Notes: generated by a model from the letters alone, not told the origin. A stretch of DNA of 32,000 bases from Candidatus Saccharimonadota bacterium (GCA_049942765.1 CP188086.1:1-32000), one strand, 5' to 3'; shown: positions 1 to 18,441, counted from the first letter of the stretch. Numbers and translations are program-made.

Positions 1-383
1 AAAAATAAACCTATATGAGTTGTTTGTTTTTATAGAACAATATAGTTTTAACATAAACTGTTTGATTGTAAACATGTTGTTAACATTATTTTTATTTTAA
101 TAAATTATACAAATAAAAAAAAAAATATACAAATAAAAATATAGAAAGATATTTGCATTTATTTTTACTTATATATTTTTATATTTTATGAATAGATAAT
201 CAAAATATCAAATGTTATGAATATTATAAACATTTATTTTTGTTTTATAAATTATTAATTAATTAATGATAATTTAGTACTAAAAATATTATATTTGATA
301 ACATCAAAATATGAATTTTTAACATAAATTAAATTGATGTTTTCGTTTTTTAAAAAACATTTTAATATTTAATTTATTTTATT

Positions 384-3300
384 ATTAAAGAGAATAAAGA
401 TAGTAAGATACTAAAGAGAATTAAAAGATTAAAGACCATGATAGTATTAAAGAGAATAAAGATAGTAAGATACTAAAGAGAATTAAAAGATTAAAGACCA
501 TGATAGTATTAAAGAGAATAAAGATAAGATACTAAAAGAATACTAAAGAGAATTAAAAGATTAAAGACCATGATAAAGACCATATAAAGTATAAAGAGAA
601 TAAAGATAGTAAGATACTAAAAGAATTAAAAGATTAAAGACCATGATAGTATTAAAGAGAATAAAGAATAGTAAGATACTAAAAGAATTAAAAGATTAAA
701 GACCATGATAGTATTAAAAGAATAAAGATATAGAGAATTAAAAGATTAAAGACCATGATAGTATTAAAGAGAATAAAGATAATAAGATACTAAAGAGAAT
801 TAAAAGATTAAAGACCATATTAAAGAGAATAAAGATAGTAAGATACTAAAGAGAATTAAAAGATTAAAGACCATGATAGTATTAAAGAGAATAAAGATAG
901 TAAGATACTAAAGAGAATTAAAAGATTAAAGACCATGATAGTATTAAAGAGAATAAAGATAGTAAGATACTAAAGAGAATTAAAAGATTAAAGACCATGA
1001 TAGTATTAAAGAGAATAAAGATAGTAAGATACTAAAGAGAATTAAAAGATTAAAGACCATGATAGTATTAAAGAGAATAAAGATAGTAAGATACTAAAGA
1101 GAATTAAAAGATTAAAGACCATGATAGTATTAAAGAGAATAAAGATAGTAAGATACTAAAGAGAATTAAAAGATTAAAGACCATGATAGTATTAAAGAGA
1201 ATAAAGATAGTAAGATACTAAAAGAATTAAAAGATTAAAGAAGATACTAAAGATAGTAAATTAAAAGATTAAAGACCATGATAGTATTAAAGAGAATAAA
1301 GATAGTAAGATACTAAAGAGAATTAAAAGATTAAAGACCATGATAGTATAAAGAGAATAAAAGTAAGAATAAAGATAGATAAAGAGAATTAAAAGATTAA
1401 AGACCATGATAGTATTAAAGAGAATAAAGATAGTAAGATACTAAAGAGAATTAAAAGATTAAAGACCATGATAGTATTAAAGAGAAAAGATAGTAAGATA
1501 CTAAAGAGAATTAAAAGATTAAAGACCATGATAGTATTAAAGAGAATAAAGATAGTAAGATACTAAAGAGAATTAAAAGATTAAAGACCATAAAGAGAAT
1601 AAAAGATTATTAAATTAAAGAATAAAGATAGTAAGATACTAAAGAGAATTAAAAGATTAGTATTAAAGAGAATAAAGATAGTAAGATACTAAAGAGAATT
1701 AAAAGATTAAAGACCATGATAGTATTAAAAAGAATAAAGATAGTAAGATACTAAAGAGAATTAAAAGATTAAAGACCATGATAGTATTAAAGAGAATAAA
1801 GATAGTAAGATACTAAAGAGAATTAAAAGATTAAAGACCATGATAGTATTAAAGAGAATAAAGATAGTAAGATACTAAAGAGAATTAAAAGATTAAAGAC
1901 CATGATAGTATTAAAGAGAATAAAGATAGTAAGATACTAAAGAGAATTAAAAGATTAAAGACCATGATAGTATTAAAGAGAATAAAGATAGTAAGATACT
2001 AAAGAGAATTAAAAGATTAAAGACCATGATAGTATTAAAGAGAATAAAGATAGTAAGATACTAAAGAGAATTAAAAGATTAAAGACCATGATAGTATTAA
2101 AGAGAATAAAGATAGTAAGATACTAAAGAGAATTAAAAGATTAAAGACCATGATAGTATTAAAGAGAATAAAGATAGTAAGATACTAAAGAGAATTAAAA
2201 GATTAAAGACCATGATAGTATTAAAGAGAATAAAGATAGTAAGATACTAAAGAGAATTAAAAGATTAAAGACCATGATAGTATTAAAGAGAATAAAGATA
2301 GTAAGATACTAAAGAGAATTAAAAGATTAAAGACCATGATAGTATTAAAGAGAATAAAGATAGTAAGATACTAAAGAGAATTAAAAGATTAAAGACCATG
2401 ATAGTATTAAAGAGAATAAAGATAGTAAGATACTAAAGAGAATTAAAAGATTAAAGACCATGATAGTATTAAAGAGAATAAAGATAGTAAGATACTAAAG
2501 AGAATTAAAAGATTAAAGACCATGATAGTATTAAAGAGAATAAAGATAGTAAGATACTAAAAAGAATTAAAAGATTAAAGACCATGATAGTATTAAAGAG
2601 AATAAAGATAGTAAGATACTAAAGAGAATTAAAAGATTAAAGACCATGATAGTATTAGATACTAAAGAGAATTAAAAGATTAAAGACCATGATAGTATTA
2701 AAGAGAATAAAGATAGTAAGATACTAAAGAGAATTAAAAGATTAAAGACCATGATAGTATTAAAGAGAATAAAGATAGTAAGATACTAAAGAGAATTAAA
2801 AGATTAAAGACCATGATAGTATTAAAAGAGAATAAAGATAGTAAGATACTAAAGAGAATTAAAAGATTAAAGACCATGATAGTATTAAAGAGAATAAAGA
2901 TAGTAAGATACTAAAGAGAATTAAAAGATTAAAGACCATGATAGTATGATAGTAAAAGAATAAAGATAGTAAGATACTAAAGAGAATTAAAAGATTAAAG
3001 ACCATGATAGTATTAAAGAGAATAAAGATAGTAAGATACTAAAGAGAATTAAAAGATTAAAGACCATGATAGTATTAAAGAGAATAAAGATAGTAAGATA
3101 CTAAAGAGAATTAAAAGATTAAAGACCATGATAGTATTAAAAGAGAATAAAGATAGTAAGATACTAAAGAGAATTAAAAGATTAAAGACCATGATAGTAT
3201 TAAAGAGAATAAAGATATAAGATAAAGAGAATTAAAAGATTAAAGACCAAAGTATTAAAGACCTAAAGAGAATTAAAAGATTAAAGACCATAGTATTAAA

Positions 3301-5590
3301 GAGAATAAAGATAGTAAGATACTAAAGAGAATTAAAAGATTAAAGACCATGATAGTATTAAAGAGAATAAAGATAGTAAGATACTAAAGAGAATTAAAAG
3401 ATTAAAGACCATGATAGTATTAAAGAGAATAAAGATAGTAAGATACTAAAGAGAATTAAAAGATTAAAGACCATGATAGTATTAAAGAGAATAAAGATAG
3501 TAAGATACTAAAGAGAATTAAAAGATTAAAGACCATGATAGTATTAAAGAGAATAAAGATAGTAAGATACTAAAGAGAATTAAAAGATTAAAGACCATGA
3601 TAGTATTAAAGAGAAATAAAGATAGTAAGATACTAAAGAGAATTAAAAGATTAAAGACCATGATAGTATTAAAGAGAATAAAGATAGTAAGATACTAAAG
3701 AGAATTAAAAGATTAAAGACCATGATAGTATTAAAGAGAATAAAGATAGTAAGATACTAAAGAGAATTAAAAGATTAAAGACCATGATAGTATAAAGAGA
3801 ATAAAGATAGTATTAAAGAGAATTAAAAGATTAAAGACCATGAAGTATTATTAAAAGATTAAAGACCATGATAGTATTAAAGAGAATAAAGAATTAAAAG
3901 ATTAAAGACCATGATAGTATTAAAGAGAATAAAGATAGTAAAAGATACTAAAGAGAATTAAAAGATTAAAGACCATGATAGTATTAAAGAGAATAAAGAT
4001 AGTAAGATACTAAAGAGAATTAAAAGATTAAAGACCATGATAGTATTAAAGAGAATAAAGATAGTAAGATACTAAAGAGAATTAAAAGATTAAAGACCAT
4101 GATAGTATTAAAGAGAATAAAGATAGTAAGATTAAAGAGAATTAAAGAAAAGATTAAAGACCATGATAGTATTAAAGAGAATAAAGATAGTAAGATACTA
4201 AAGAGAATTAAAAGATTAAAGACCATGATAGTATTAAAGAGAATAAAGATAGTAAGATACTAAAGAGAATTAAAAGATTAAAGACCATGATAGTATTAAA
4301 GAGAATAAAGATAGTAAGATAAAAGAGAATTAAAAGATTAAAGACCATGATAGTATTAAAGAGAATAAAGATAAAGATATAGAATTAAAAGATTAAGTAT
4401 ATAAAGAGAATTAAAGAGAAAAAGATTAAAGACCATGATAGTATTAAAGAGAATAAAGATAGTAAGATACTAAAGAGAATTAAAAGATTAAAGACCATGA
4501 TAGTATTAAAGAGAATAAAGATAGTAAGATACTAAAGAGAATTAAAAGATTAAAGACCATGATAGTATTAAAGAGAATAAAGATAGTAAGATACTAAAGA
4601 GAATTAAAAGATTAAAGACCATGATAGTATTAAAGAGAATAAAGATAGTAAGATACTAAAGAGAATTAAAAGATTAAAGACCATGATAGTATTAAAGAGA
4701 ATAAAGATAGTAAGATACTAAAGAGAATTAAAAGATTAAAGACCATGATAGTATTAAAGAGAATAAAGATAGTAAGATACTAAAGAGAATTAAAAGATTA
4801 AAGACCATGATAGTATTAAAGAGAATAAAGATAGTAAGATACTAAAGAGAATTAAAAGATTAAAGACCATGATAGTATTAAAGAGAATAAAGATAGTAAG
4901 ATACTAAAGAGAATTAAAAGATTAAAGACCATGATAGTATTAAAGAGAATAAAGATAGTAAGATACTAAAGAGAATTAAAAGATTAAAGACCATGATAGT
5001 ATTAAAGAGAATAAAGATAGTAAGATACTAAAGAGAATTAAAAGATTAAAGACCATGATAGTATTAAAGAGAATAAAGATAAAAGAATTAAAAGATAAAG
5101 ACCATGATAGTATTAAAGAGAATAAAATTAAAAGATTAAAGACCATGATAGTATAAAGAGAATAAAGATATAAGTAAAGAGAATTAAAAGATTAAAGACC
5201 ATAATAGTATTAAAGAGACCATGATAGTATTAAAATAAAGATAAAAGATTAAAGATACTAAAGAGAATTAAAAGATTAAAGACCATGATAGTAAAAGATT
5301 AAAGACCAAAGTATTAAAGAATAAAGATAGTAAGATACTAAAGAGAATTAAAAGATTAAAGACCATGATAGTATTACTAAAAGAGAATAAAGATAAAAAG
5401 ATTAAAGACCATGATACTAAAGTAAGAATTAAAAGATTAAAGACCATGATAGTATTAAAGAGAATAAAGATAGTAAGATACTAAAGAGAATTAAAAGATT
5501 AAAGACCATGATAGTATTAAAGAGAATAAAGATAGTAAGATACTAAAGAGAATTAAAAGATTAAAGACCATGATAGTATTAAAGAGAATA
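384..5590. repeat. Satellite-like tandem repeat array: 62-bp unit, ~84 copies, ~5.2 kb, non-coding
   Basis: Consensus unit is ATTAAAGAGAATAAAGATAGTAAGATACTAAAGAGAATTAAAAGATTAAAGACCATGATAGT. In perfect stretches the pattern advances 2 nt per 60-nt line, giving a 62-bp period. The first recognisable unit starts at ~384 (ATTAAAG). The last partial unit ends at ~5590 (AAAGAGAATA, followed by unrelated TGTATCTAAT). Stop codons occur in all frames of both strands, and only one spurious 68-aa ORF falls in the whole array. Confidence 0.97.
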
Positions 5591-5651
5591 TGTATCTAAT
5601 TTAAGATTGCAACTGTATTATAATATGGAATATATAATATTATGGATCTTA

Positions 5652-5679
5652 TTGATAAATAAATGTAATTATGTATAAT
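5652..5679 (+). promoter_or_regulatory. Possible sigma70-type promoter upstream of yfgM (TTGATA, 16-nt spacer, TATAAT)
   Basis: TTGATA at 5652-5657 and TATAAT at 5674-5679, ~90 nt upstream of the yfgM ATG. Hexamers like these arise easily by chance in DNA this AT-rich. Confidence 0.25.
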
Positions 5680-5769
5680 AATTAAAATTGATTTTAATCA
5701 TAATTATAAAATTAGTTATTTAAAATTTTTTTTGTATGTAATTTTATTTAGTTTTTTAATGAGAATAAT

Positions 5770-6384
5770 ATGTTCTGTCAATTAAATTTTTTTACTTTAT
5801 TTACTACAGATATAAAGAAAAATAAATTTTTTCTAACATTGTTGTTTTTTGTGTGTTTGTTATTTTGTGTGATATTTTGTTTTTATGTTAACAAAGAATA
5901 TAATGTTGGTGTTGACTTTGATACTTATGATTTTTTATCTCAGAAATTAGATGAACGAACTTATTTGATTAATCACTATGATAAATTAAAAAAATTTTTA
6001 TTAAGTAACCATAATATTTATGGAACTTTGATTGCTTTAAAATTAGCTTCTAAGTATTTTGAGTTAGGAAAAATTGATAATGCTATTCAGTTATTGAAAT
6101 CATGTTTATTATATACATCAGATGATTATTTTCGAACAGTGATATGTTTACGATGGGTACACATGGAAATGGAAAAAAGAAAATTAAATATAGTTCCTAG
6201 TATATTAAATAAAATTGATTATGAATCTTGGATAAATTTTATAACAGATATTAAAGGTGATTTGTTTATGTTACAACAAAAAAAACAATTAGCTTTAAAT
6301 TCTTGGAAAAAAAGTTATTTTTATGAACAAGATAATATTTTAAAAAATATTATACGAATGAAAATTAACTATGTTGCAGAATAG
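5770..6384 (+). CDS. yfgM: YfgM-like membrane-anchored TPR-like protein (ancillary SecYEG translocon subunit)
   Basis: 204 aa, against ~206 aa in E. coli. It has one N-terminal TM helix (FFLTLLFFVCLLFCVIFCFYV). Recalled E. coli YfgM segments align: NTYGALASLELAQQF with NIYGTLIALKLASKYF, DTSDENLKAVINLRLARV with YTSDDYFRTVICLRWVHM, and C-terminal MQMKINNL with IRMKINYV. It sits directly upstream of der, as in E. coli. Confidence 0.85.
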   Translation: MFCQLNFFTLFTTDIKKNKFFLTLLFFVCLLFCVIFCFYVNKEYNVGVDFDTYDFLSQKLDERTYLINHYDKLKKFLLSNHNIYGTLIALKLASKYFELGKIDNAIQLLKSCLLYTSDDYFRTVICLRWVHMEMEKRKLNIVPSILNKIDYESWINFITDIKGDLFMLQQKKQLALNSWKKSYFYEQDNILKNIIRMKINYVAE

Positions 6385-6440
6385 TATGAATTTTTTTTTA
6401 ATGAAATTTTCATGTATATGATGAAAAAAGGAATTAATAT

Positions 6441-7826
6441 ATGATACCGATAATTTCAATTATTGGTAGAAACAATGTAGGAAAATCTACAATATTTAAT
6501 CAATTTACAAAAACGAAAGATGCTTTAGTCACAGATATCCCTGGAACAACTCGAGATAGACAATATGGATATGTTTCTATTAACAATAAAAAATTAATCT
6601 TTGTAGATACAGCGGGTTTAAGTGATCAAAATCACACTATAATAGCAATTAAAAATAAAACTGTGAATCAAACTAATATAGCTATTCAGATGTCAGATAT
6701 TATTGTGTTTGTAGTGAATGCGTATGAAGGTTTGTTACCTACAGATTATGATATAATTAATAATATTAGAAAAACTAAACAAAATATTTTTTTAGTAATA
6801 AATAAAATTGATTTATTAAGAAATGATATTTCTTTTAAATTAGAATTTTATGATTTAGGTTTTCAAAAAATTTATTATGTTTCTGCTTTAAAAAAAATAG
6901 GTTTTAGTTCATTAGTTGATGATTTTTTAAAGCAAATTAAATATTTACAGGAAACTTCAATACATACAGTTCACAGAAAAGATAAGAATTCTTCAATATT
7001 ATATAAAGATATAAATCATTTTTGTAGTAATAACCATTTAAAATTAATTGTGCTTGGAAAACCTAATGTAGGAAAATCTACTTTAATCAATTCTTTAATA
7101 GGTGAACAAAGAGTTATTACTCATGATTGTGCTGGAACAACTAGAGATATGATTTTTATTCCTTTATTACATGAAAATAAAAAATATATATTGATAGATA
7201 CTGCTGGTATTTTAAAAATCAAACATAAAACTAATTATATTCAATATATTTCGTCGAAAAAAACATTATCATATATCGATAAAAGCAACGTTGTTTTACT
7301 TGTGATAGATGTATTAGAATGTATTACAAATCAGGATTTATCTTTGTTAAACGTAGTAATGAAATTAGGTAAATCTATGATTATTTTGATCAATAAATGG
7401 GATTTAATACCTGTTCACAAAAGAAAATTTACTAGATTATGTGTAGAACACAAATTAAAATTTTTAAAAAATTTTAAAATCCATTATATTTCTGCATTGC
7501 ATTCAATGAATGTAAAAAAAATAATGTTAATGGCTGATCGATTATATAAATTATCTATGACTAAATTAAGTTCTTTAAAATTAAATATTATAATGAAATC
7601 GGCTGTTGGTGAACATGCACCACCATTAATTAATGGTCATAAAATAAAATTTAAATATGTACATCCAGGAGGGTATGATCCATTAATTGTTATAGTGCAT
7701 GGTACTAAATTAAAGTATTTAATTAACTCTTATAAACAATATTTAATAAATTATTTTCAAAGATCTCTAAATTTAATTAATATCCCTTTGAAATTATATT
7801 TTAAAGATCATAGTAAAGTATTATGA
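6441..7826 (+). CDS. der: Ribosome-associated GTPase Der (EngA), two tandem G domains plus KH-like C-terminus
   Basis: 461 aa with two P-loops (GRNNVGKST and GKPNVGKST), two DTAG motifs and two NKxD motifs (NKID, NKWD). An AAGGA Shine-Dalgarno lies upstream of the ATG. Confidence 0.95.
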   Translation: MIPIISIIGRNNVGKSTIFNQFTKTKDALVTDIPGTTRDRQYGYVSINNKKLIFVDTAGLSDQNHTIIAIKNKTVNQTNIAIQMSDIIVFVVNAYEGLLPTDYDIINNIRKTKQNIFLVINKIDLLRNDISFKLEFYDLGFQKIYYVSALKKIGFSSLVDDFLKQIKYLQETSIHTVHRKDKNSSILYKDINHFCSNNHLKLIVLGKPNVGKSTLINSLIGEQRVITHDCAGTTRDMIFIPLLHENKKYILIDTAGILKIKHKTNYIQYISSKKTLSYIDKSNVVLLVIDVLECITNQDLSLLNVVMKLGKSMIILINKWDLIPVHKRKFTRLCVEHKLKFLKNFKIHYISALHSMNVKKIMLMADRLYKLSMTKLSSLKLNIIMKSAVGEHAPPLINGHKIKFKYVHPGGYDPLIVIVHGTKLKYLINSYKQYLINYFQRSLNLINIPLKLYFKDHSKVL

Positions 7827-7889
7827 AATCTATTTTTGTTAAAATAATTGCAATAAAAAATTTTTTAAAAAAAAATTTTGATGTGTTAT

Positions 7890-8225
7890 TTATGATTCGT
7901 TAACATGATTAATAGTATAGAATGGTATTTCTATTTCGACATCTTTATCACCTAATCTTGCTTGACATCCTAATCGACTGTATTGTTGTACTCCCCAGGC
8001 TTTATCTAATACATCTTCTTCTTGTTCATTTATGTTAGATAGAGATTCGAATCCAGAATGGATAATACAATGGCAGGTGCTACAGGCACAAGATTTTTCG
8101 CATGCATGTTCCATGTGAATTCTATTGTTTAAAGCTATTTCTAAAATACTTTCTCCTGATTTTGCATTAATGGTTTTTTTTTTTTTTTCTTGCATAACAT
8201 AAAATATAAATGTAACTTTCGGCAT
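7890..8225 (-). CDS. fdx: ISC-type [2Fe-2S] ferredoxin
   Basis: 111 aa. HACEKSCACSTCHC and the later Cys (LGCQA) match the E. coli Fdx cluster ligands, and the C-terminus EIPFYTINH aligns with EIPRYTINH. It is the last gene of the isc cluster. An in-frame A15 run encodes EKKKKT at 8174-8188. Confidence 0.95.
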   Translation of the reverse strand: MPKVTFIFYVMQEKKKKTINAKSGESILEIALNNRIHMEHACEKSCACSTCHCIIHSGFESLSNINEQEEDVLDKAWGVQQYSRLGCQARLGDKDVEIEIPFYTINHVNES

Positions 8226-8405
8226 TTTTAGATCTCGTTTAATTAGTTAAGATATTTTTCAGAGGATAATGGTTAGTTTGTATAATAAATGAAATAAAAA
8301 ATATTAAATTAATTAATGTTTTTTTATGATGTAATTTTATTTTTAAAATATAAGTGATTGGATAATATTTTTTTAATTAGTATATGTTTAAAATAGGATA
8401 ATGTT

Positions 8406-9922
8406 CTAAATGTGATTTATATCATTAATTAATTTATTTTTTTGTTTTTTGGATGATTTATCCATAGCTATGACGTTTAGTAATCCTTCAGCATTAATTT
8501 CAAATGTTATAGAAATTTTATGTGTTCCAGCTAATTTAGGTTCTAGTCCTTTAAATGAAAATCGTTGTAGAGATTTACAGTGTTTAACTTGATCTGATTC
8601 TCCTTGTAATATATGAATGATAATAGCAGTTTGACCATCTTTATAAGTTGTGAATTCTTTAGTTTGAGAAGTTGGTATTTTAGTATTTTTAAAAATGATT
8701 TTTTCTACTAAACCACCTATTACTTCTATACCTAATGATAATGGCAGAACATCTAATAATAACCAATTATTTTTTGGTTTATGTGTTATTAGGTTATGAG
8801 CATGTATAGCAGATCCTAATGCAACAGTTTCTTCTGGATTTAAAGTAGATAATGGTGTTTGTTGAAAAAATATTTCAACTTTTTGTTTGATGAATGGAAT
8901 GTGAGTAGAACCTCCTACTAATATAATATTATTAATATTTTTTAATTTAATTTTAGCGTCATTTAAAGCGATTTTACAGCAATTTAATGTTTTATTTATG
9001 GAAGGTTCAATTAATTCATTAAATTCTGTTCTAGTGATGGAATAAGATGTATTTTTGTGTTTAAAAGGAACATTGATAAATTTTGATAATTGTTTTTTGA
9101 TATTTTTAGCTGATAAAAAAAATTTTTGACGTTCATCTAAAGTAATATTACTTTGATTTAGTTTTAATTTTGATAATATATGATTATATAACATGTAGTC
9201 AAAGTCATCACCACCTAAATTAGTATCTCCATTAGTAGCTAACACTTCAAAAATATTTTTGTTTATTTTTAATATTGAAAAATCAAAAGTACCTCCTCCT
9301 AAATCATAAATAGCAATAATTCCTTTTTTTGAGTTATTAAAACCATATGCAATAGCAGCAGCTGTTGGTTCATTTAATAAACGAAAATTAGTTAATCCTG
9401 ATTGTATAATAGCTTCTTTTGTTGCTTTTCTTTGAACATCATTAAAATATGCAGGAACAGTAATTACTGCATATTCAATGTTTTTTTTGTGATTGTTTGT
9501 TGTTCTTTTTATTAATGATTGAATTATTTTGCTTGAAATTTGAGTAACTGAAAACATTCCCTGTACAGTTGAAATTAAGGTTTGGTTATTTTTATCTGCT
9601 GAGAGCAAATATGGTATGTTTGGATATAGACGTTTAATTGTTTCTAAAGATAGTCCCATCAGACGTTTTATAGAGACAATGGTATTAGTAATATCAGTAT
9701 TAAGATAATTAATGGCTTTCTGACCTACAGTAATTTTATTAGGACCAACATGTACAATAGAATGTAAAATTTTATGGTTATGATGATCAGTTAATATTTT
9801 CAATTGATTATTGTAATTAGTAGCAATTAAAGAATGTGTAGTACCTAAATCAATTCCAATAGAAAACTTGTTAGTTTGGTGAATATCAATATTTTTATTT
9901 TTTTTTTAATATGTGTTATCAT
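8406..9922 (-). pseudogene. hscA: Fe-S cluster chaperone HscA (Hsp70 family), frameshifted in an A10 tract near the 5' end and missing the C-terminal helical lid
   Basis: The tracked ORF (8406-9803, TTG start) begins at the equivalent of about residue 50. The same frame continues upstream through KNKNIDIHQTNKFSIGIDLGTTHSLIATNYNNQ, which contains the Hsp70 phosphate-1 motif, and reaches an in-frame TAA. An ATG at 9922-9920 lies 11 nt after the hscB stop, reads MITHIKKK into the A10 run (T10 on + at 9898-9907), and is one base out of frame. The product would be ~505 aa, against 616 aa for E. coli HscA. It ends about 16 residues after the AMDKSS (AMEKST) segment. Confidence 0.85.
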
Positions 9923-9933
9923 TTAAGGTTCTC

Positions 9934-10455
9934 TTATGTAATTTCAGTAGTGTCAATAATCTCGTTTACTTGTTTTTTTAATTTCAAAAAATATTCTAGT
10001 TTTTGTACTATTAAACTAGCATTTATCCATTCTTGTTGATTAAAATATTTTGTTAAAATAGAATAATATTTTTTAATTTTGTATTTTACTATATTTTTTT
10101 TAAATGTATATAATGTTTCTCTTGTAGCATGATTTAATTTTAAATTATGTAAATCTTCACATAATGTATAATATTTTACAAAAAAAATTTTATCAGTTAA
10201 ACAATAATTTTTATGACTAATATTGATTTTATTTAATTGTAATAAATATTTAGCTCGATCCTGTGGGTTTTTTAAAATATGATATCCTTGATTGATAATC
10301 ATTGATTTTTTTAAAGCTTTTTTTTGATTATTTATGGTATCTAATATAAATAAATCTGGATGATATTTTTTTTGCAAAAAATAAAAATTTTTAGTTAATT
10401 TATTTTTATTAATTGCAAATTCTTGATTTAAATTAAATAATTCAAAGTAATTCAT
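9934..10455 (-). CDS. hscB: J-domain co-chaperone HscB
   Basis: 173 aa with an N-terminal J domain carrying the HPD motif (KKYHPDLF). Located between iscU and hscA, as in the E. coli isc operon. Confidence 0.9.
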   Translation of the reverse strand: MNYFELFNLNQEFAINKNKLTKNFYFLQKKYHPDLFILDTINNQKKALKKSMIINQGYHILKNPQDRAKYLLQLNKINISHKNYCLTDKIFFVKYYTLCEDLHNLKLNHATRETLYTFKKNIVKYKIKKYYSILTKYFNQQEWINASLIVQKLEYFLKLKKQVNEIIDTTEIT

Positions 10456-10513
10456 TATATTCTCATGTTTTAATTGAAGTATTAAACATCTTTGATTTAT
10501 TTTTTAATAAGTT

Positions 10514-10921
10514 TCAATTTTTAGAATCAAATTGTTGATTTTTTAGTTTTTTATTTTTGTAGTCTAAAATAGCTGCTTTAATGGCTTCTTCTGCTAAAAT
10601 TGAGCAATGTATTTTTACTGGTGGTAGTTCTAGTTCTTTTACTATGCTAGTGTTTTTTATTTTTTCTGCTTCTGTTAAAGACTTACCTTTAATCCATTCT
10701 GTGATTAATGAACTAGATGCTATAGCAGAACCACAACCGTAGGTTTTAAAACATGCATCTTCGATCATACCTTCATTGTTAACTTTAATTTGTAATTTCA
10801 TAACATCCCCACAGGCTGGTGCTCCTACTAAACTACTTCCAATATTAACGTCATTTTCTGGAAATGATCCTACATTTCTGGGGTTTTCATAATGATCTAT
10901 TACTTTTTTACTGTATGTCAT
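10514..10921 (-). CDS. iscU: Fe-S cluster scaffold protein IscU
   Basis: 135 aa and near-identical in blocks to E. coli IscU: VIDHYENPRNVGSF, GAPACGDVMKLQIKV, FKTYGCGSAIASSS, LPPVKIHCSILAE. Confidence 0.97.
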   Translation of the reverse strand: MTYSKKVIDHYENPRNVGSFPENDVNIGSSLVGAPACGDVMKLQIKVNNEGMIEDACFKTYGCGSAIASSSLITEWIKGKSLTEAEKIKNTSIVKELELPPVKIHCSILAEEAIKAAILDYKNKKLKNQQFDSKN

Positions 10922-10961
10922 ATGGCATTCCTTATTTTAATAAATGTATGTAAAAAATAAG

Positions 10962-12176
10962 TTATAATTTCCAATTAATATCGTTTAAATTAATACCAGA
11001 TTGGTGCATTTCCCACAATGGAGATAATGCTCTTAATTTAGATATGGATGTATGAATTGATTGAATTGTGTAATCGATTTCCTCTGTTGTAGTAAAAAAA
11101 CCTATAGAGAATCTAATAGAACTATGTGCTAATTCATCTTTAATATTCATAGCTTTTAAAACATACGATGGTTCTAAACTAACCGATGTACAAGCTGATC
11201 CAGATGAAACTGCTAGATTTTTTAGTCCCATAATTAATGATTCACCTTCTACGTAATTAAAACTAACATTTAAGATGTGAGGAGCACTATTGTTCATGTG
11301 AGAATTTAAGTATACTTCTTCAATATTTTTAATTCCATTCCATAGTCGTTCTTTTAGCAATTGAAGTCTATTTGGTTCTTTTTGAATGTGATAGACTGCT
11401 AATCGACAAGCTTCTCCCATTCCTACAATTTGATGTACAGGCAAGGTTCCTGATCGAAAACCTCTTTCATGCCCACCTCCGTGAATTTGTGGAACAAGTC
11501 TTATTCTAGGTTTTCTTTTAATATATAAAGCACCAATACCTTTAGGTCCATAGATTTTATGTGAACTAAAAGAAATTAATCCAATATTGATTTTTTTTAC
11601 ATCTATTGGTATTTTTCCAATGCTTTGTGTCATATCTACATGAAATGTAAGATTATATTTTTCGCACAATAGAGCAATAGATTCTATGTCTTGTATAATA
11701 CCTGTCTCATTATTAACATGCATAATAGAAATTAGTATTGTATTTTTTGTTATAGAATCTTCTAGATTTTTTAAATTAATTAACCCATTTGATTCAGGAT
11801 TTACATAAGTTATATTAATTTTTTTAGTTTCTAAATATCGACATGTATCTAATATAGATTTATGTTCTGTACTGCTGGTGATAATATGATTACCTTTAGA
11901 TTGATAGAATTCTGTAAAACCTTTAATAGATAAATTATTAGATTCTGTTGCTCCAGATGTAAATATTATTTCTCTTTCATCTGCATTTATTAATGTAGCA
12001 ATGTGGTTTCTAGCAATATCGATGGCTTCTTCAGCTTTCCATCCAAAAACATGTGATCTTGAAGCAGCATTTCCAAAATTTCCCGGTATGGTATAGTAGG
12101 AATTCATTTTTTCTATTACTTCAGGCATCATAGGTGTAGTAGCTGCGTAATCTAAATAAATTGGAAATTTAATCAA
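10962..12176 (-). CDS. iscS: Cysteine desulfurase IscS (PLP-dependent)
   Basis: 404 aa, the same length as E. coli IscS. It carries the [20 protein letters not shown]-lysine region and the SSGSACTS active-site Cys loop. The start codon is TTG, preceded by GAGG 5 nt upstream. Confidence 0.97.
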
Positions 12177-12537
12177 GTGAACCTCAATTTAATTTAATAA
12201 TTTTTCTCTGATAATTATTAAAATTAATAATTTATCTAAATGTTTATTTAATTATATATTATAAATCATTTTTTATGATATAAGTAATACTTATTACATA
12301 TATATTTTTTAAGAAGTTATTGATTTTTTATATAACCCAATATAATATTATTAATATAATCGATATTAATGTAATATTACTGTCTGACTTTGTTAATTGT
12401 TTAAGTTTTATTTATTTTTAGATATTAAATTTTTGGGATTTAGTTTCTTTTATAATATATGTATGTATATATTAAAAATAATTACTTAAATTTTGATTTA
12501 TCATTTAAGTTTTGAGATAGTATTTAAATTTATGTAA

Positions 12538-12611
12538 GAGGGCGTAGTTCAATTAGGTAGAGCATCGGTCTCCAAAACCGAGTGTTGGGGGTTCGATTCC
12601 CTCCGCCCTTG
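12538..12611 (+). tRNA. trpT: tRNA-Trp (anticodon CCA)
   Basis: A cloverleaf can be drawn by hand. Acceptor stem GAGGGCG/CGCCCTT, anticodon arm TCGGT-CTCCAAA-ACCGA, T arm GGGGG-TTCGATT-CCCTC. Near-identical to recalled E. coli tRNA-Trp. The 3' CCA is not encoded. Confidence 0.9.
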
Positions 12612-12634
12612 TAAAATATGATAGAGAATGTTGA

Positions 12635-12733
12635 TTGTTTCATAATTTTATAAATTAAAAATAAGGTTTTAAATAAATTTCATAATGAAATTTATTTAAA
12701 ACCTTATTTTTAATTTATAAAATTATGAAACAA
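12635..12733. repeat. Perfect 99-bp palindrome (two 49-bp arms around a single central base) between tRNA-Trp and ilvD; possible terminator or RNA-structure element
   Basis: The reverse complement of the left arm (12635-12683) was checked base by base and equals the right arm (12685-12733); the centre is A12684. The right arm ends inside or next to the ilvD Shine-Dalgarno (AAGGA, 12733-12737), and the ATG is at 12744. Confidence 0.9.
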
Positions 12734-14726: not shown

Positions 14727-16202
14727 ATGATAAATTATTTTAGTAACTTAAATTTTAGAAAACAATTGATAGAACTTCAAAAATGTCGTCTGATGAGATC
14801 AGAAGAATTTTATAGTCAATGTTCATGCTTAATTGAAAAAAAAATAGTTATTGTAGGATGTGGTTCTCAAGGATTAAATCAGGGTTTAAACATGAGAGAT
14901 TCAGGATTAAACATTTCCTTTGCTTTAAGATCAGAATCTATTCGTTCTAAAAACCAATCATGGAAAAGAGCTATTAAACATAATTTTCTTGTAGATACAT
15001 ATGAAAATTTAATTCCTAATGCAGATTTAGTTATTAATTTAACACCGGATAAACAACATACTATAGTAGTTAAAGAACTTCAACCACTAATGAAAAATGG
15101 ATCAATATTAGGATATTCACATGGATTTAATATCGTAGAAATGGGTGAAAATATTAGAAAAGATATTACTGTGGTTATGGTTGCACCTAAATGTCCTGGT
15201 TCAGAAGTTAGAGAAGAATATCAAAGAAATTTTGGAGTTCCAACGTTAATTGCTGTTCATCAAGAAAACGATCCGAAAAACATAGGTTTAGAAATTGCTA
15301 AAGCTTGGTCTGTAGCTTTAGGTAGTCATCATGCTGGAGTTTTAGAATCTTCTTTTGTAGCTGAAGTAAAATCAGATTTAATGGGAGAACAAACTATTTT
15401 ATGTGGTATGTTGCAAACTGGTAGTTTGGTATGTTATGAATATCTTATTGATCAAGGACATGATGCTGGTTATGCATGTAAGTTAATACAATATGGTTGG
15501 GAAGTCTTAACTGAATCGCTCAAACATGGTGGAATTACATTAATGTTAGATAGGGTTTCTAACACAGCAAAATTTAGAATATGTCAATTATCTTGTAAAT
15601 TAAAAAAATTGTTTAGACCATTATTTGAGAAGCATATGGATGATATTATTTCAGGTAATTTTTCTTCTAATATGATGTTAGATTGGAAGAATCATGATAA
15701 TCAATTGTTAACATGGAGAGAAGAAACAAAGCATACTAGTTTTGAAAATGCACCTAACTATACAGGCATGATTACAGAACAAGAGTATTTTAATCATTCT
15801 ATTTTTATGATTGCTATTATTAAATTTGGAGTTGAATTATCATTTGAAGTTATGACAGAAACCGGTATTATTCCAGAATCAGCATATTATGAATCTTTAC
15901 ATGAATTACCATTAATAGCAAATACAATTGCTAGAAAAAGATTATATGAAATGAATGTAGTAATATCAGATACAGCAGAATACGGTAATTATTTATTTTC
16001 TAAGTCTGCTTATCCTATTTTAAAAAAATTTGTAAAAACATTAGAATATGGTGACATGGGGCATGACATTATGTTTAAAAATATTAATAATATAGATTTG
16101 AATGCATTAAATTATGATATTGAACATCATGCTGCTATTGAATTAGTAGGTAAGGAATTAAGAAAAAAAATGAAAAATATGAAAGTTGTTTCTTGTATAT
16201 AA
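14727..16202 (+). CDS. ilvC: Ketol-acid reductoisomerase (class II)
   Basis: The tracked ORF starts at 14646. The ATG at 14727 gives [14 protein letters not shown], which aligns with the E. coli N-terminus MANYFNTLNLRQQL and yields 491 aa, the E. coli length. It carries the [22 protein letters not shown]-binding motif. Confidence 0.93.
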
Positions 16203-18441
16203 TACATATCAAATAATGTTTTTTTATAGAAGACTATAAGTATTACTCTTTTGTTAAATATAAATTAGTGGTTGAATTATTTGTAAAAATATCAATTTTA
16301 TATATAGATATAGTCGTATATAATAATATTATTAACTATTTTTATTAATTTTGAATTGTTAAATATAAAAGATTATTTTTTAAGCATTTAATGAAAGAAT
16401 ATATTTGTATGTATTAATTGGTTTTATTTATATTTTTTTTGCTAAAAAATTATGTTATATATTTAATTAATTATTTTATTATTAATCATAATTATATTAC
16501 TAATTTAGTAATAGTTACTTTTTAAGTAATAGAAAATATTAATAATATTAAATGTAATTATATAGTTAATAATTGTTAATTCTTCATGGATTATTTCTTC
16601 TTTAGTATAGATATATATATAATATTTAAATTCTATTATGAATATTTTAAATTAATTTCGAATATAGAGAAGCAATGTTAGTGTTTATGTTAAAAAACTA
16701 TTTTTATTAAATTTAAGTTAGTTAATAAAATTTAAAAAAAATAGTTTAATTAATTGTATAAATAATTAATGTTAATTGTTTTTTTGATTTTTATAAAAAA
16801 TATTATTTATATTTAATATATTTTTAAATGATGGATTTTAATAATTTATTCTTTTCTATGTTAAGATCGAATGATCTTTTAATAAAATTGATTTTTGTAA
16901 TACAAAGTGTAATATTAATCAATTTATAAGGTTAATATTTTTAAAAGATAAGCATATAAAATTATTGATGTGTTTAAGGTTACAATTTTATTGTATTAAA
17001 TAATAACTAGTTATATATTGTTGTATAATATTAACAATTAATTTTAGTTAGTATATATTTATAATAAAATTTATTAATATGAATATTAATGATGGAATAG
17101 AGTTTATATTTTATCTACAAAACATTAATAATATTGAATATTTTTAATTCTAATAATTTAATAAATTAATGAATTGTCGATATTGTCATGTAATGTTTAT
17201 GTTTAAAGTTAATATATATAATATTTATATATAAAGGAATTTAAGAAAATTTTTTTATACAAAATATATAAATTTTGTTGTTAAAAAAGAAATTTATTTT
17301 TATTGTTATATTATTTAAATATTTAATCTTTTTTATTATGTACGGAGTCTATTAATGTTTAAATATAATATAAAATTTTTAGATGTTAATTATTCAAAAT
17401 TTAAAAAATTGTTTTTTATTGATAATTCATTAATAATTTATAAGATTAATTTTATAGAACAGTTATTAATATTTTTTTTTGATTTTTATTAAAAAATAAA
17501 TTATATAAATTCAACATATTATTAAAAAATTATTATTTGAATTTTTTATCTAAGTAATTTCTTTTTAAATGTTATTAATATAATAATATATATTTTTATA
17601 TTTTGATTTATATTTTTTTTAAATTGTTGAAGTAATTGAACATTTATAAAATTTTTTATTGTAGAATGGATATTGATTTTTTATATATAAACTTTAAAAA
17701 AAATAAATATATATTAGATTAAATTTCATACTAATAGTATGGATATTTTTTAATATAAAATAGAAATAGAAAAAATATAAATTAATTACTATAGAAAATT
17801 TATTTTTTATTTTATTTACTATTAATACATATGTAGATATAGTATCTATGTTATAAATAACAATTATACAAGAAATAAATTTAAATTAATGATAAAAATA
17901 GTGATTTACTAGTAGTTGAGTTCAAAATATTTATTATATATAAATAACAATGGTGAATTATTAGTTATTAACGATAATAAAAATAAAATTAATATAGATC
18001 AACAATTGTATTGTATTAATATTAAAAATGTGAATAAATTCAACTAATTAATTGTAATAAAAATTAAAATATATATTTTAAATAATAAAATTTATCAATA
18101 TAAAATAAGTTTTTTATTAAATGTATTGTAAAAATTTTTAATTAATTACTTAATGATAATTATTTCAAAATTATAAAATATAATAATTATTATTCATGTA
18201 TTTTAATTAATTATTAAGATAAAATTTGATGTAATATATACAGTTCTTAAAATTTTTTCTATTTTTTTTAAAAATTTGTATATATAATCTATAAAATTAT
18301 TAATTTGATATAATTTTAATAAATTTTTTTTTATGTATTTAATAGTGATAAAATATTTAATAGATGAAAAGATTATTAATATAATTTAATTAATGTTATA
18401 TAATATTTTAATGTTTCACACATAACTTATATAGGTTTAAT
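16203..18441. other. 2.24-kb non-coding gene desert (no ORF of 60 aa or more), probably the eroded remnant of ancestral gene(s)
   Basis: The six-frame track lists no ORF in this interval. The sequence is almost pure A/T, with no GC-rich island that would suggest a structured RNA. In E. coli the ilvC-trxA interval carries ppiC, rep, gppA and rhlB. Confidence 0.7.

Follow-up and report, generated by a model that had tools for sequence, protein, structure and literature searches.

What is a 5.2-kb tandem repeat doing in Buchnera, the standard example of a static, repeat-free and shrinking genome? The question is raised by a 32,000-nucleotide stretch of DNA (hereafter the window), the start of record CP188086 of Buchnera aphidicola (Eriosoma harunire), in which ~84 head-to-tail copies of a 62-bp unit occupy positions 383–5590. 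An earlier description made from the sequence alone (the sequence-only reading) had offered a function, an active expansion mechanism or an assembly problem as explanations, and these proved to be the right set of options to weigh. We propose, with a probability of roughly 0.6, that the array is a lineage-specific, fast-turnover minisatellite that was born in place, amplified by replication slippage or unequal sister-strand misalignment, and tolerated. The direct observations behind this proposal are the position of the array, the near-identity of its units, the lack of recognisable functional signals, the presence of differing arrays in the same spacer of sister species, and the occurrence of arrays elsewhere in the chromosome of Tetraneura symbionts.

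The origin of the DNA is evident from the IlvD protein encoded in the window, which is 100% identical to the IlvD of "MAG: Buchnera aphidicola (Eriosoma harunire)", a 627,315-bp contig; the next nearest are those of the Buchnera of E. lanigerum (75%) and E. grossulariae (72%). The sequence-only reading had thus correctly placed the DNA in a streamlined endosymbiont.

Tandem Repeats Finder (TRF) reported one dominant array in the window, at 383–5590 with a period of 62, scoring 3,812–4,845 as against 157 or less for every other match. Its 5,208 bp divide into 84 units of 62 bp, so that the size and copy number given by the sequence-only reading hold for the sequence record, as distinct from the molecule; the array amounts to 0.83% of the chromosome as recorded. 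Within it, TRF counted 80.0 copies at 383–5293 with 87% matches and 7% indels, and a final 2.9 copies with 98% matches. Wraparound alignment to the consensus unit, TATTAAAGAGAATAAAGATAGTAAGATACTAAAGAGAATTAAAAGATTAAAGACCATGATAG, gave 5,097 matches, 21 substitutions, 228 deleted and 90 inserted bases. The identical 62-mer is present in 48 of 79 anchor-delimited units, the anchor spacing is exactly 62 bp in 51 of 79 cases, and the longest perfectly periodic run extends over 831 bp. This periodicity is far beyond chance, and the overall structure is one of near-identical units broken by ~30 patches of partial-unit indels. Having only 21 substitutions in 5.2 kb indicates recent expansion or ongoing homogenisation. 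The unit (A34 C3 G11 T14) is 73% purine on the plus strand, on which the array has a GC skew of +0.56 and an AT skew of +0.42. At the right end, a direct reading of the junction shows a terminal partial unit, TATTAAAGAGAATA (5577–5590), possibly the ancestral copy that seeded the array.

The array is non-coding, as the sequence-only reading had stated. Stops close all frames of the plus strand, and on the minus strand the longest open reading frame (ORF) in consensus units has 26 codons, begins with ATG and occurs once per unit. A length of 62, which is not a multiple of 3, together with so short an ORF does not fit a protein-coding tandem repeat, and multiples of 3 are not favoured among the indel sizes. 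Could the array be expressed all the same, either as repetitive RNA or in the form of the 26-residue hydrophobic peptide MVFNLLILFSILLSLFSLILSWSLIF made many times over? The recurrence of an ATG-initiated ORF in each consensus unit speaks for this idea, but the composition of the peptide is the default of a T-rich strand, and no Shine-Dalgarno-like sequence precedes the ATG on direct reading. Promoter-like sites are depleted in the array (23 versus 50 expected) and lacking in the consensus units, where no terminator was found either, and the promoter matches in the flanks are directed away from the array. The unit is also predicted to be nearly structureless as a single strand (−3.6 kcal/mol per 124 nt), with neither RNA nor DNA structure predicted. 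Together with the indel sizes, these observations make expression of the array extremely unlikely.

Where the array lies had escaped the sequence-only reading: it occupies the mnmG–yfgM spacer, which holds the replication origin (oriC). To place it we compared the window with the corresponding sequences from the Buchnera of E. lanigerum (L004), E. grossulariae (L005), Tetraneura ulmi (L006, OZ060366), Schlechtendalia chinensis (L008) and T. akinire (L009, CP188088), and from Buchnera strain APS (L007). In APS the contig crossing the chromosome start has mnmG (gidA) and yfgM as divergent neighbours 432 bp apart, and the spacer between them holds a perfect DnaA box, TGTGGATAA, along with related boxes. 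Similarly, no gene separates yfgM from the end of the record in the Buchnera of E. lanigerum, E. grossulariae, T. ulmi, S. chinensis and Thelaxes. The T. akinire record, produced by the laboratory that also produced CP188086, has as its position 1 the base directly following the mnmG start codon and carries yfgM on the plus strand. The window opens with 12 bases (AAAAATAAACCT) that resemble those behind the mnmG ATG in APS (L007 from 2620) as well as the opening of the T. akinire record. We infer that window positions 1–5769 are the whole mnmG–yfgM spacer of CP188086, which at 5,769 bp would be ~13 times as long as that of APS. Measured on the plus strand, third-codon GC skew has a positive sign whichever strand the genes lie on (+0.47 and +0.25); this is consistent with leading-strand DNA that runs away from an origin at or beyond the left end of the window. 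The array itself lies between diverging promoters, between the origin core and the promoter of yfgM, and ends ~180 bp upstream of this gene.

Is an array of this length real? According to the genome announcement (Tong et al. 2025, PMC12243488), in which the array goes unmentioned, CP188086 was sequenced with Oxford Nanopore Technologies (ONT) R10.3 chemistry and Guppy 4 to a depth of 431x with a read N50 of 3,150 bp, assembled with Minimap2 and Miniasm followed by Racon, and circularised. The contig was then polished in three rounds of Pilon with 75-bp Illumina read pairs, and the record was reoriented to the APS strain (PMC12243488). The concern about assembly voiced in the sequence-only reading thereby becomes concrete: the read N50 is shorter than the 5,208-bp array and reads of 75 bp cannot be assigned a place within a 62-bp repeat, so that neither the copy number nor the ~30 indel patches can be trusted. 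A short real repeat may have been inflated or mis-sized in the Miniasm layout, its internal variants being consensus errors; the excess of indel bases over substitutions (318 versus 21) and their clustering in patches, while unique DNA is nearly error-free, speak for such an artefact.

Independent data limit how far this explanation can go. A Logan contig built from Illumina data of the same sample (L001, 7,104 bp) matches window positions 5561–12664 exactly over its whole length and opens with exactly 30 nt (k−1) of the array. It thereby lends independent support to the right junction and to the repetition of the unit. Over 11,879 bases, a second Illumina contig (L003) departs from the window in one 3-bp indel; with no difference in the 7,104 bases of the first, the record is accurate in unique DNA. 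The depth of 431x and the circularisation of the contig also argue against an artefact, as does the clean 2.1-kb array that the same pipeline produced for T. akinire at a place where the Illumina contig breaks too. Moreover, independent Illumina projects failed to close Eriosoma origins. We therefore regard an array that is in the main an artefact as unlikely, although not negligibly so, and treat the 5.2-kb length and the ~30 indel patches as provisional; these may in part be nanopore or polishing artefacts.

The same spacer holds arrays in both sister species. In the Buchnera of E. lanigerum we found a 74-bp unit in 4.8 copies (100% identity) and a 43-bp unit in 5.9 copies (99%), and in that of E. 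grossulariae a 55-bp unit in 4.9 copies (98%), followed by a perfect palindrome (TATAAAATATGTCTAAATGCATCTATTAATAGATGCATTTAGACATATTTTATA, L005 293–346, with ~24-nt arms) that lies between the array and yfgM. The 62-mer shows no significant similarity to the sister Eriosoma units (P=0.12–1.0), the Eriosoma units have no 7-mer in common, and they differ from one another in composition and folding. A homology to the 43-bp unit of E. lanigerum that had been suspected by eye (AAAGAGA..AAAG.TAG) was discarded, with P=0.12 and no shared 7-mer. Beyond Eriosoma, no array was found in the mnmG–yfgM spacer of the APS, T. akinire and Thelaxes Buchnera; that of S. chinensis has only (AT)n-type low complexity, and that of Ceratoglyphina a 56-bp duplication.

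Both sister records are Illumina assemblies that end in their arrays. They belong to the same accession series and most likely come from the study of Manzano-Marin et al. (2023; bioRxiv 10.1101/2022.08.28.505559), the Methods of which state that a "low-complexity replication start" kept some Buchnera genomes unclosed. The ~5 copies seen in each sister array correspond to roughly one read length, and these arrays are therefore probably truncated.

Arrays of this kind are not confined to the origin. In the Buchnera of T. akinire a 69-bp unit is repeated ~30 times between hscB and iscU, within the isc operon (2.1 kb, 98–99% identity, L009 5012–7171); this array has a noticeably higher G+C content than the DNA around it, and the Illumina contig breaks off at the array boundary. 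At the same place, the Buchnera of T. ulmi has at least nine copies of a 38-bp unit with an internal gap of 20 Ns (L006 4740–5083). The two Tetraneura units share a 15-nt core, GTACTTGCATCTATG, and contain hairpins, and the hscB–iscU spacer of E. harunire measures only 58 bp. The motif TGCATCTA, considered as a mobile element common to the arrays, was rejected as having been chosen post hoc. It is better read as a conserved site of the origin spacer, present in S. chinensis, E. grossulariae and E. lanigerum and, with one mismatch, in E. harunire; its occurrence in the Tetraneura hscB–iscU units could be coincidence.

The sister arrays also bear on the possibility that the array is foreign, with a satellite of the host aphid or a mitochondrial repeat misjoined to the Buchnera contig. 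Aphid genomes and mitogenomes do contain AT-rich tandem repeats, and the left junction is seen in the ONT assembly alone. On the other hand, the junction with unique Buchnera DNA on the right is present in the Illumina contig, sister Buchnera carry arrays at the very same site, and the unit was not found in the collections searched (JGI metagenome contigs, IMG/VR viral sequences and PLSDB plasmids). A chimera is consequently a highly improbable explanation. The consensus search that the sequence-only reading had proposed likewise found no source copy of the 62-mer elsewhere in the window or in the Buchnera loci retrieved from relatives. Its claim of novelty thus stands for the exact 62-bp repeat, which is new and not found in relatives, and falls for the kind of feature, which occurs in relatives and is mentioned in the literature, although uncharacterised.

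Does the array work for the origin in which it lies? It might hold sites for an initiator, nucleoid or segregation protein, as iterons, datA or a centromere do, and so control, or stand in for, an origin whose DnaA boxes have decayed, in a symbiont that is highly polyploid. Its position in the oriC spacer, where arrays occur in 3 of 3 Eriosoma Buchnera, favours such a role, and there is a precedent in the Buchnera pTrp plasmid, whose 55-nt tandem repeat with a DnaA box is a proposed origin (PMC4898801). The DnaA-box core, which aligns cleanly between APS and T. akinire (...TACTATTATTAG...CTGTGGATAA...ATTAACTGTGTAYAA...), points the same way: when window positions 1–382 were compared with L007 2620–3051 and L009 1–410, no recognisable counterpart of this core (TGTGGATAA, TGTGTAYAA, TACTATTATTAG) was found in the E. 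harunire spacer.

The unit itself, however, offers nothing to support such a function. No DnaA box with up to one mismatch (TTATNCACA 9-mers) was found inside 383–5590, so the array resembles neither a DnaA-box cluster nor a datA-like titration site; across the window such matches number 52, fewer than the 66.5 expected from shuffles, and in the flanks of the array degenerate boxes are no commoner than chance. The 62-mer contains no inverted repeat or hairpin. Curvature by phased A-tracts had seemed conceivable from about six TAAAGA-like sub-repeats (62/6 = 10.3 bp), and was dismissed when Fourier analysis gave a sub-period of 8.86 bp and a power at 10.3 bp of just 0.009 (P=0.88 versus shuffles). 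No par, sop, rep or initiator gene was found in the window, which makes an iteron or a plasmid-type centromere a poor match as far as the sequence goes. The four Eriosoma units have no motif, composition, strand bias or hairpin in common, and the similar arrays of Tetraneura lie away from the origin. In all, we found no supporting evidence for a functional origin element, and of the options listed in the sequence-only reading it is function that finds no signal in the unit; a functional origin-associated array appears decidedly unlikely to us. CRISPR (clustered regularly interspaced short palindromic repeats) is no better a description, as the sequence-only reading had recognised, since the units abut head to tail with no spacers; nor is there a transposase, integrase or cas gene among the ORFs of the window, all of which are housekeeping genes.

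We therefore return to a tolerated minisatellite as the best explanation. A 62-bp stretch of the local spacer would have been duplicated, and the duplication would then have been amplified and homogenised by RecA-independent slippage or by unequal misalignment of sister chromosomes; Buchnera are generally reported to lack recA. Hairpin-driven expansion was considered and set aside: the E. harunire unit does not fold, and only the 43-bp unit of E. lanigerum does (z=−3.3). The expansion would be tolerated, selection not opposing an array that touches neither genes nor the origin core and sits between diverging promoters. The sequence and length of the unit would turn over quickly between species, in keeping with the differing sister units. 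Intergenic minisatellites are already known in bacteria, and we found no evidence of a new mechanism.

Several points weigh against this explanation. The ONT assembly is the only source for the number of copies, the left junction and the variants inside the array, and the probable truncation of the sister arrays means that their copy numbers are not quantitatively comparable with that of E. harunire. Slippage is a mechanism that we infer rather than observe. Reduced genomes are usually credited with a deletion bias, under which a neutral insertion of 5.2 kb would not be expected. Finally, arrays at one spacer in all three Eriosoma Buchnera, combined with the lost DnaA-box core, could mean that the origin has been remodelled and that the arrays take part in it. 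In its full form, this alternative holds that the DnaA-box core has decayed in Eriosoma and that the species-specific arrays are working parts of a new origin; they could serve as low-specificity binding sites by which an initiator or nucleoid protein is titrated or loaded, or help to segregate a highly polyploid chromosome in the manner of a centromere. Array length would then tune replication or copy number. We think this scenario improbable.

Among the known systems closest to the E. harunire array is the "low-complexity replication start" already mentioned, which concerns the same organism group and the same locus, and in which repeats stop short-read assemblies from closing. Here too the array lies in the mnmG–yfgM spacer and the Illumina contig stops 30 nt into it. 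The difference is that the literature treats such sequence as an assembly nuisance, truncated or filled with Ns, with unit, copies and structure undescribed, whereas the E. harunire array has been read through as ~84 copies of 62 bp.

Repeats of the control (A+T-rich) region of animal mitochondria offer a second likeness. Their units are homogeneous within lineages and unrelated between them, for which replication slippage is the usual explanation. Like the Eriosoma arrays, they are head-to-tail repeats in the single large non-coding region, which bears the origin, of a small, AT-rich, multicopy and recombination-poor genome. The comparison is an analogy, not a homology: Buchnera has a bacterial chromosome with bidirectional and presumably DnaA-dependent replication, and length heteroplasmy is a feature of the mitochondrial repeats, while the E. 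harunire array is known from one assembly.

Spacers that grow against the usual deletion bias have been described in another obligate insect symbiont, Portiera from Bemisia tabaci, where tandem repeats expanded spacers and were tied to the loss of replication and repair genes (Sloan & Moran 2013, PMC3673631); E. harunire Buchnera, for its part, has lost rep (see below). The Portiera repeats are mostly 7-bp microsatellites spread over many spacers and accompanied by rearrangements (PMC3673631). In E. harunire there is, by contrast, one 62-bp minisatellite in one spacer, the other long spacers of the window are free of arrays, and gene order is conserved. A genome-wide proliferation of the Portiera type is thus not seen in the window, which covers 5% of the genome.

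Bacterial intergenic variable-number tandem repeats (VNTRs), such as mycobacterial MIRU loci and VNTR-105 and VNTR-141 of Wolbachia, are non-coding, have units of tens of bp, and usually comprise 2–15 copies in less than 1 kb. As a head-to-tail series of non-coding units of 10–100 bp between two genes (mnmG and yfgM), the E. harunire array belongs to this class. It differs in extent, with ~84 copies and 5.2 kb, and VNTR loci are not tied to oriC. The differing units of the sister species demonstrate turnover rather than copy-number polymorphism, there being one E. harunire assembly. Plasmid iterons, sopC of the F plasmid (12 x 43 bp) and the 55-nt repeat of Buchnera pTrp (PMC4898801) are also direct repeats beside an origin. 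They, however, carry a defined protein-binding motif beside the gene of the binding protein, or a DnaA box, and the 62-mer has no DnaA box, inverted repeat or partner gene.

If the length of the array holds, local and rapid gain of DNA is still possible in genomes as reduced as these, contrary to the view of Buchnera as free of repeats and only losing DNA; the differing sister arrays in the same spacer and the kb-scale arrays of Tetraneura point to local gain as well. Short-read assemblies of Buchnera hid such DNA behind stretches of Ns and truncations. The locus is a natural system in which RecA-independent repeat expansion can be studied, and it may be useful as a hypervariable marker for Buchnera populations. 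Should the arrays have an origin function after all, this would bear on the control of replication in polyploid endosymbionts.

The left flank of the array (1–382, GC 18%) is the mnmG-proximal part of the origin spacer, with the mnmG start codon probably just off the window, and has promoter-like matches at 183–315 on the minus strand that point left. It includes a conserved block at 100–140 on the plus strand with two TATACAAAT 9-mers ~20 bp apart, where TRF reports a 20-bp repeat of 1.9 copies (102–139). The block aligns with E. lanigerum L004 48–88 at ~88% identity over ~41 nt, and in that species it adjoins the left edge of the arrays. At position 105, TTATACAAA is a one-mismatch match to the DnaA box, of a kind no commoner than chance; the TATACAAAT 9-mers may be decayed remnants of DnaA boxes.

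On the right, the array is abutted by TGTATCTAA (5591–5599, plus strand), which together with the last A of the array (5590) reads ATGTATCTA. This is a one-mismatch copy of ATGCATCTA, a site conserved upstream of yfgM in related Buchnera: within the same spacer it occurs in S. chinensis (L008 134), in every 43-bp unit of E. lanigerum and on both arms of the E. grossulariae palindrome (L005 305/318), against a background frequency of about one per 5–10 kb. Alignment of the array junction with E. lanigerum is marginal (P=0.046). The best sigma-70-like promoter match, TTGATA-16-TATAAT (11/12), follows at 5652–5679 on the plus strand, ~90 bp upstream of yfgM and directed towards it, away from the array. 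Beyond the origin spacer, the first gene on the right is yfgM-like (5770–6384, plus strand), identified by a TPR_21 match (PF09976, E=4e-11) and by synteny shared with the APS, Eriosoma, Tetraneura, Schlechtendalia and Thelaxes Buchnera. It is followed by der, fdx, hscA, hscB, iscU, iscS, tRNA-Trp, ilvD, ilvC, trxA, rho and further housekeeping genes, in an order that matches other Buchnera.

Other loci of the window also deserve mention. In the rep position, the Buchnera of E. lanigerum, E. grossulariae, S. chinensis, Ceratoglyphina and Thelaxes and strain APS encode a Rep/UvrD-type helicase of ~640–680 aa. The corresponding stretch of the window (16203–18441) is ORF-free with 11–15% GC and gave no tblastn match with the E. 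lanigerum protein, which indicates that rep has been eroded in E. harunire; the gene is also missing in both Tetraneura Buchnera. The genomes with kb-scale arrays (E. harunire and T. akinire) and T. ulmi with its unresolved one are exactly the three sampled genomes that lack rep. This link is confounded, since the rep-less genomes include the only two ONT assemblies, and we offer the idea that rep loss may be relevant to repeat instability as a lead only.

A palindrome lies immediately upstream of ilvD in all three Eriosoma Buchnera (window 12635–12733, L004 7508–7607, L005 7365–7514), and Illumina contigs break exactly at it. Its arms are 49 nt long and 100% complementary in E. harunire and E. 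lanigerum, and 75 nt and 95% complementary in E. grossulariae. The arm sequences differ between species except for an AAGGTT core, which implies that both arms have evolved together; the palindrome could be a functional leader hairpin, or could be kept perfect by template switching. It is absent from the APS, Tetraneura, Schlechtendalia, Ceratoglyphina and Thelaxes Buchnera.

Three smaller observations concern proteins encoded in the window. The sole difference between the record and Illumina contig L003 is the 3-bp indel, at 16130–16133 near the 3' end of ilvC in a CATCATGCTGCT context, by which IlvC has 518 aa in the record and 517 aa in L003. An ORF of 451 aa (27535–28890, plus strand) has no Pfam match, and for the syntenic ORFs of 481–493 aa in the Tetraneura and Ceratoglyphina Buchnera none is on record either. 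Lastly, hscA (8406–9890, minus strand) is C-terminally truncated, aligning with residues 12–495 of the 614-aa HscA of E. grossulariae; HscA has 611 aa in APS and ~500 aa in other Eriosomatinae.

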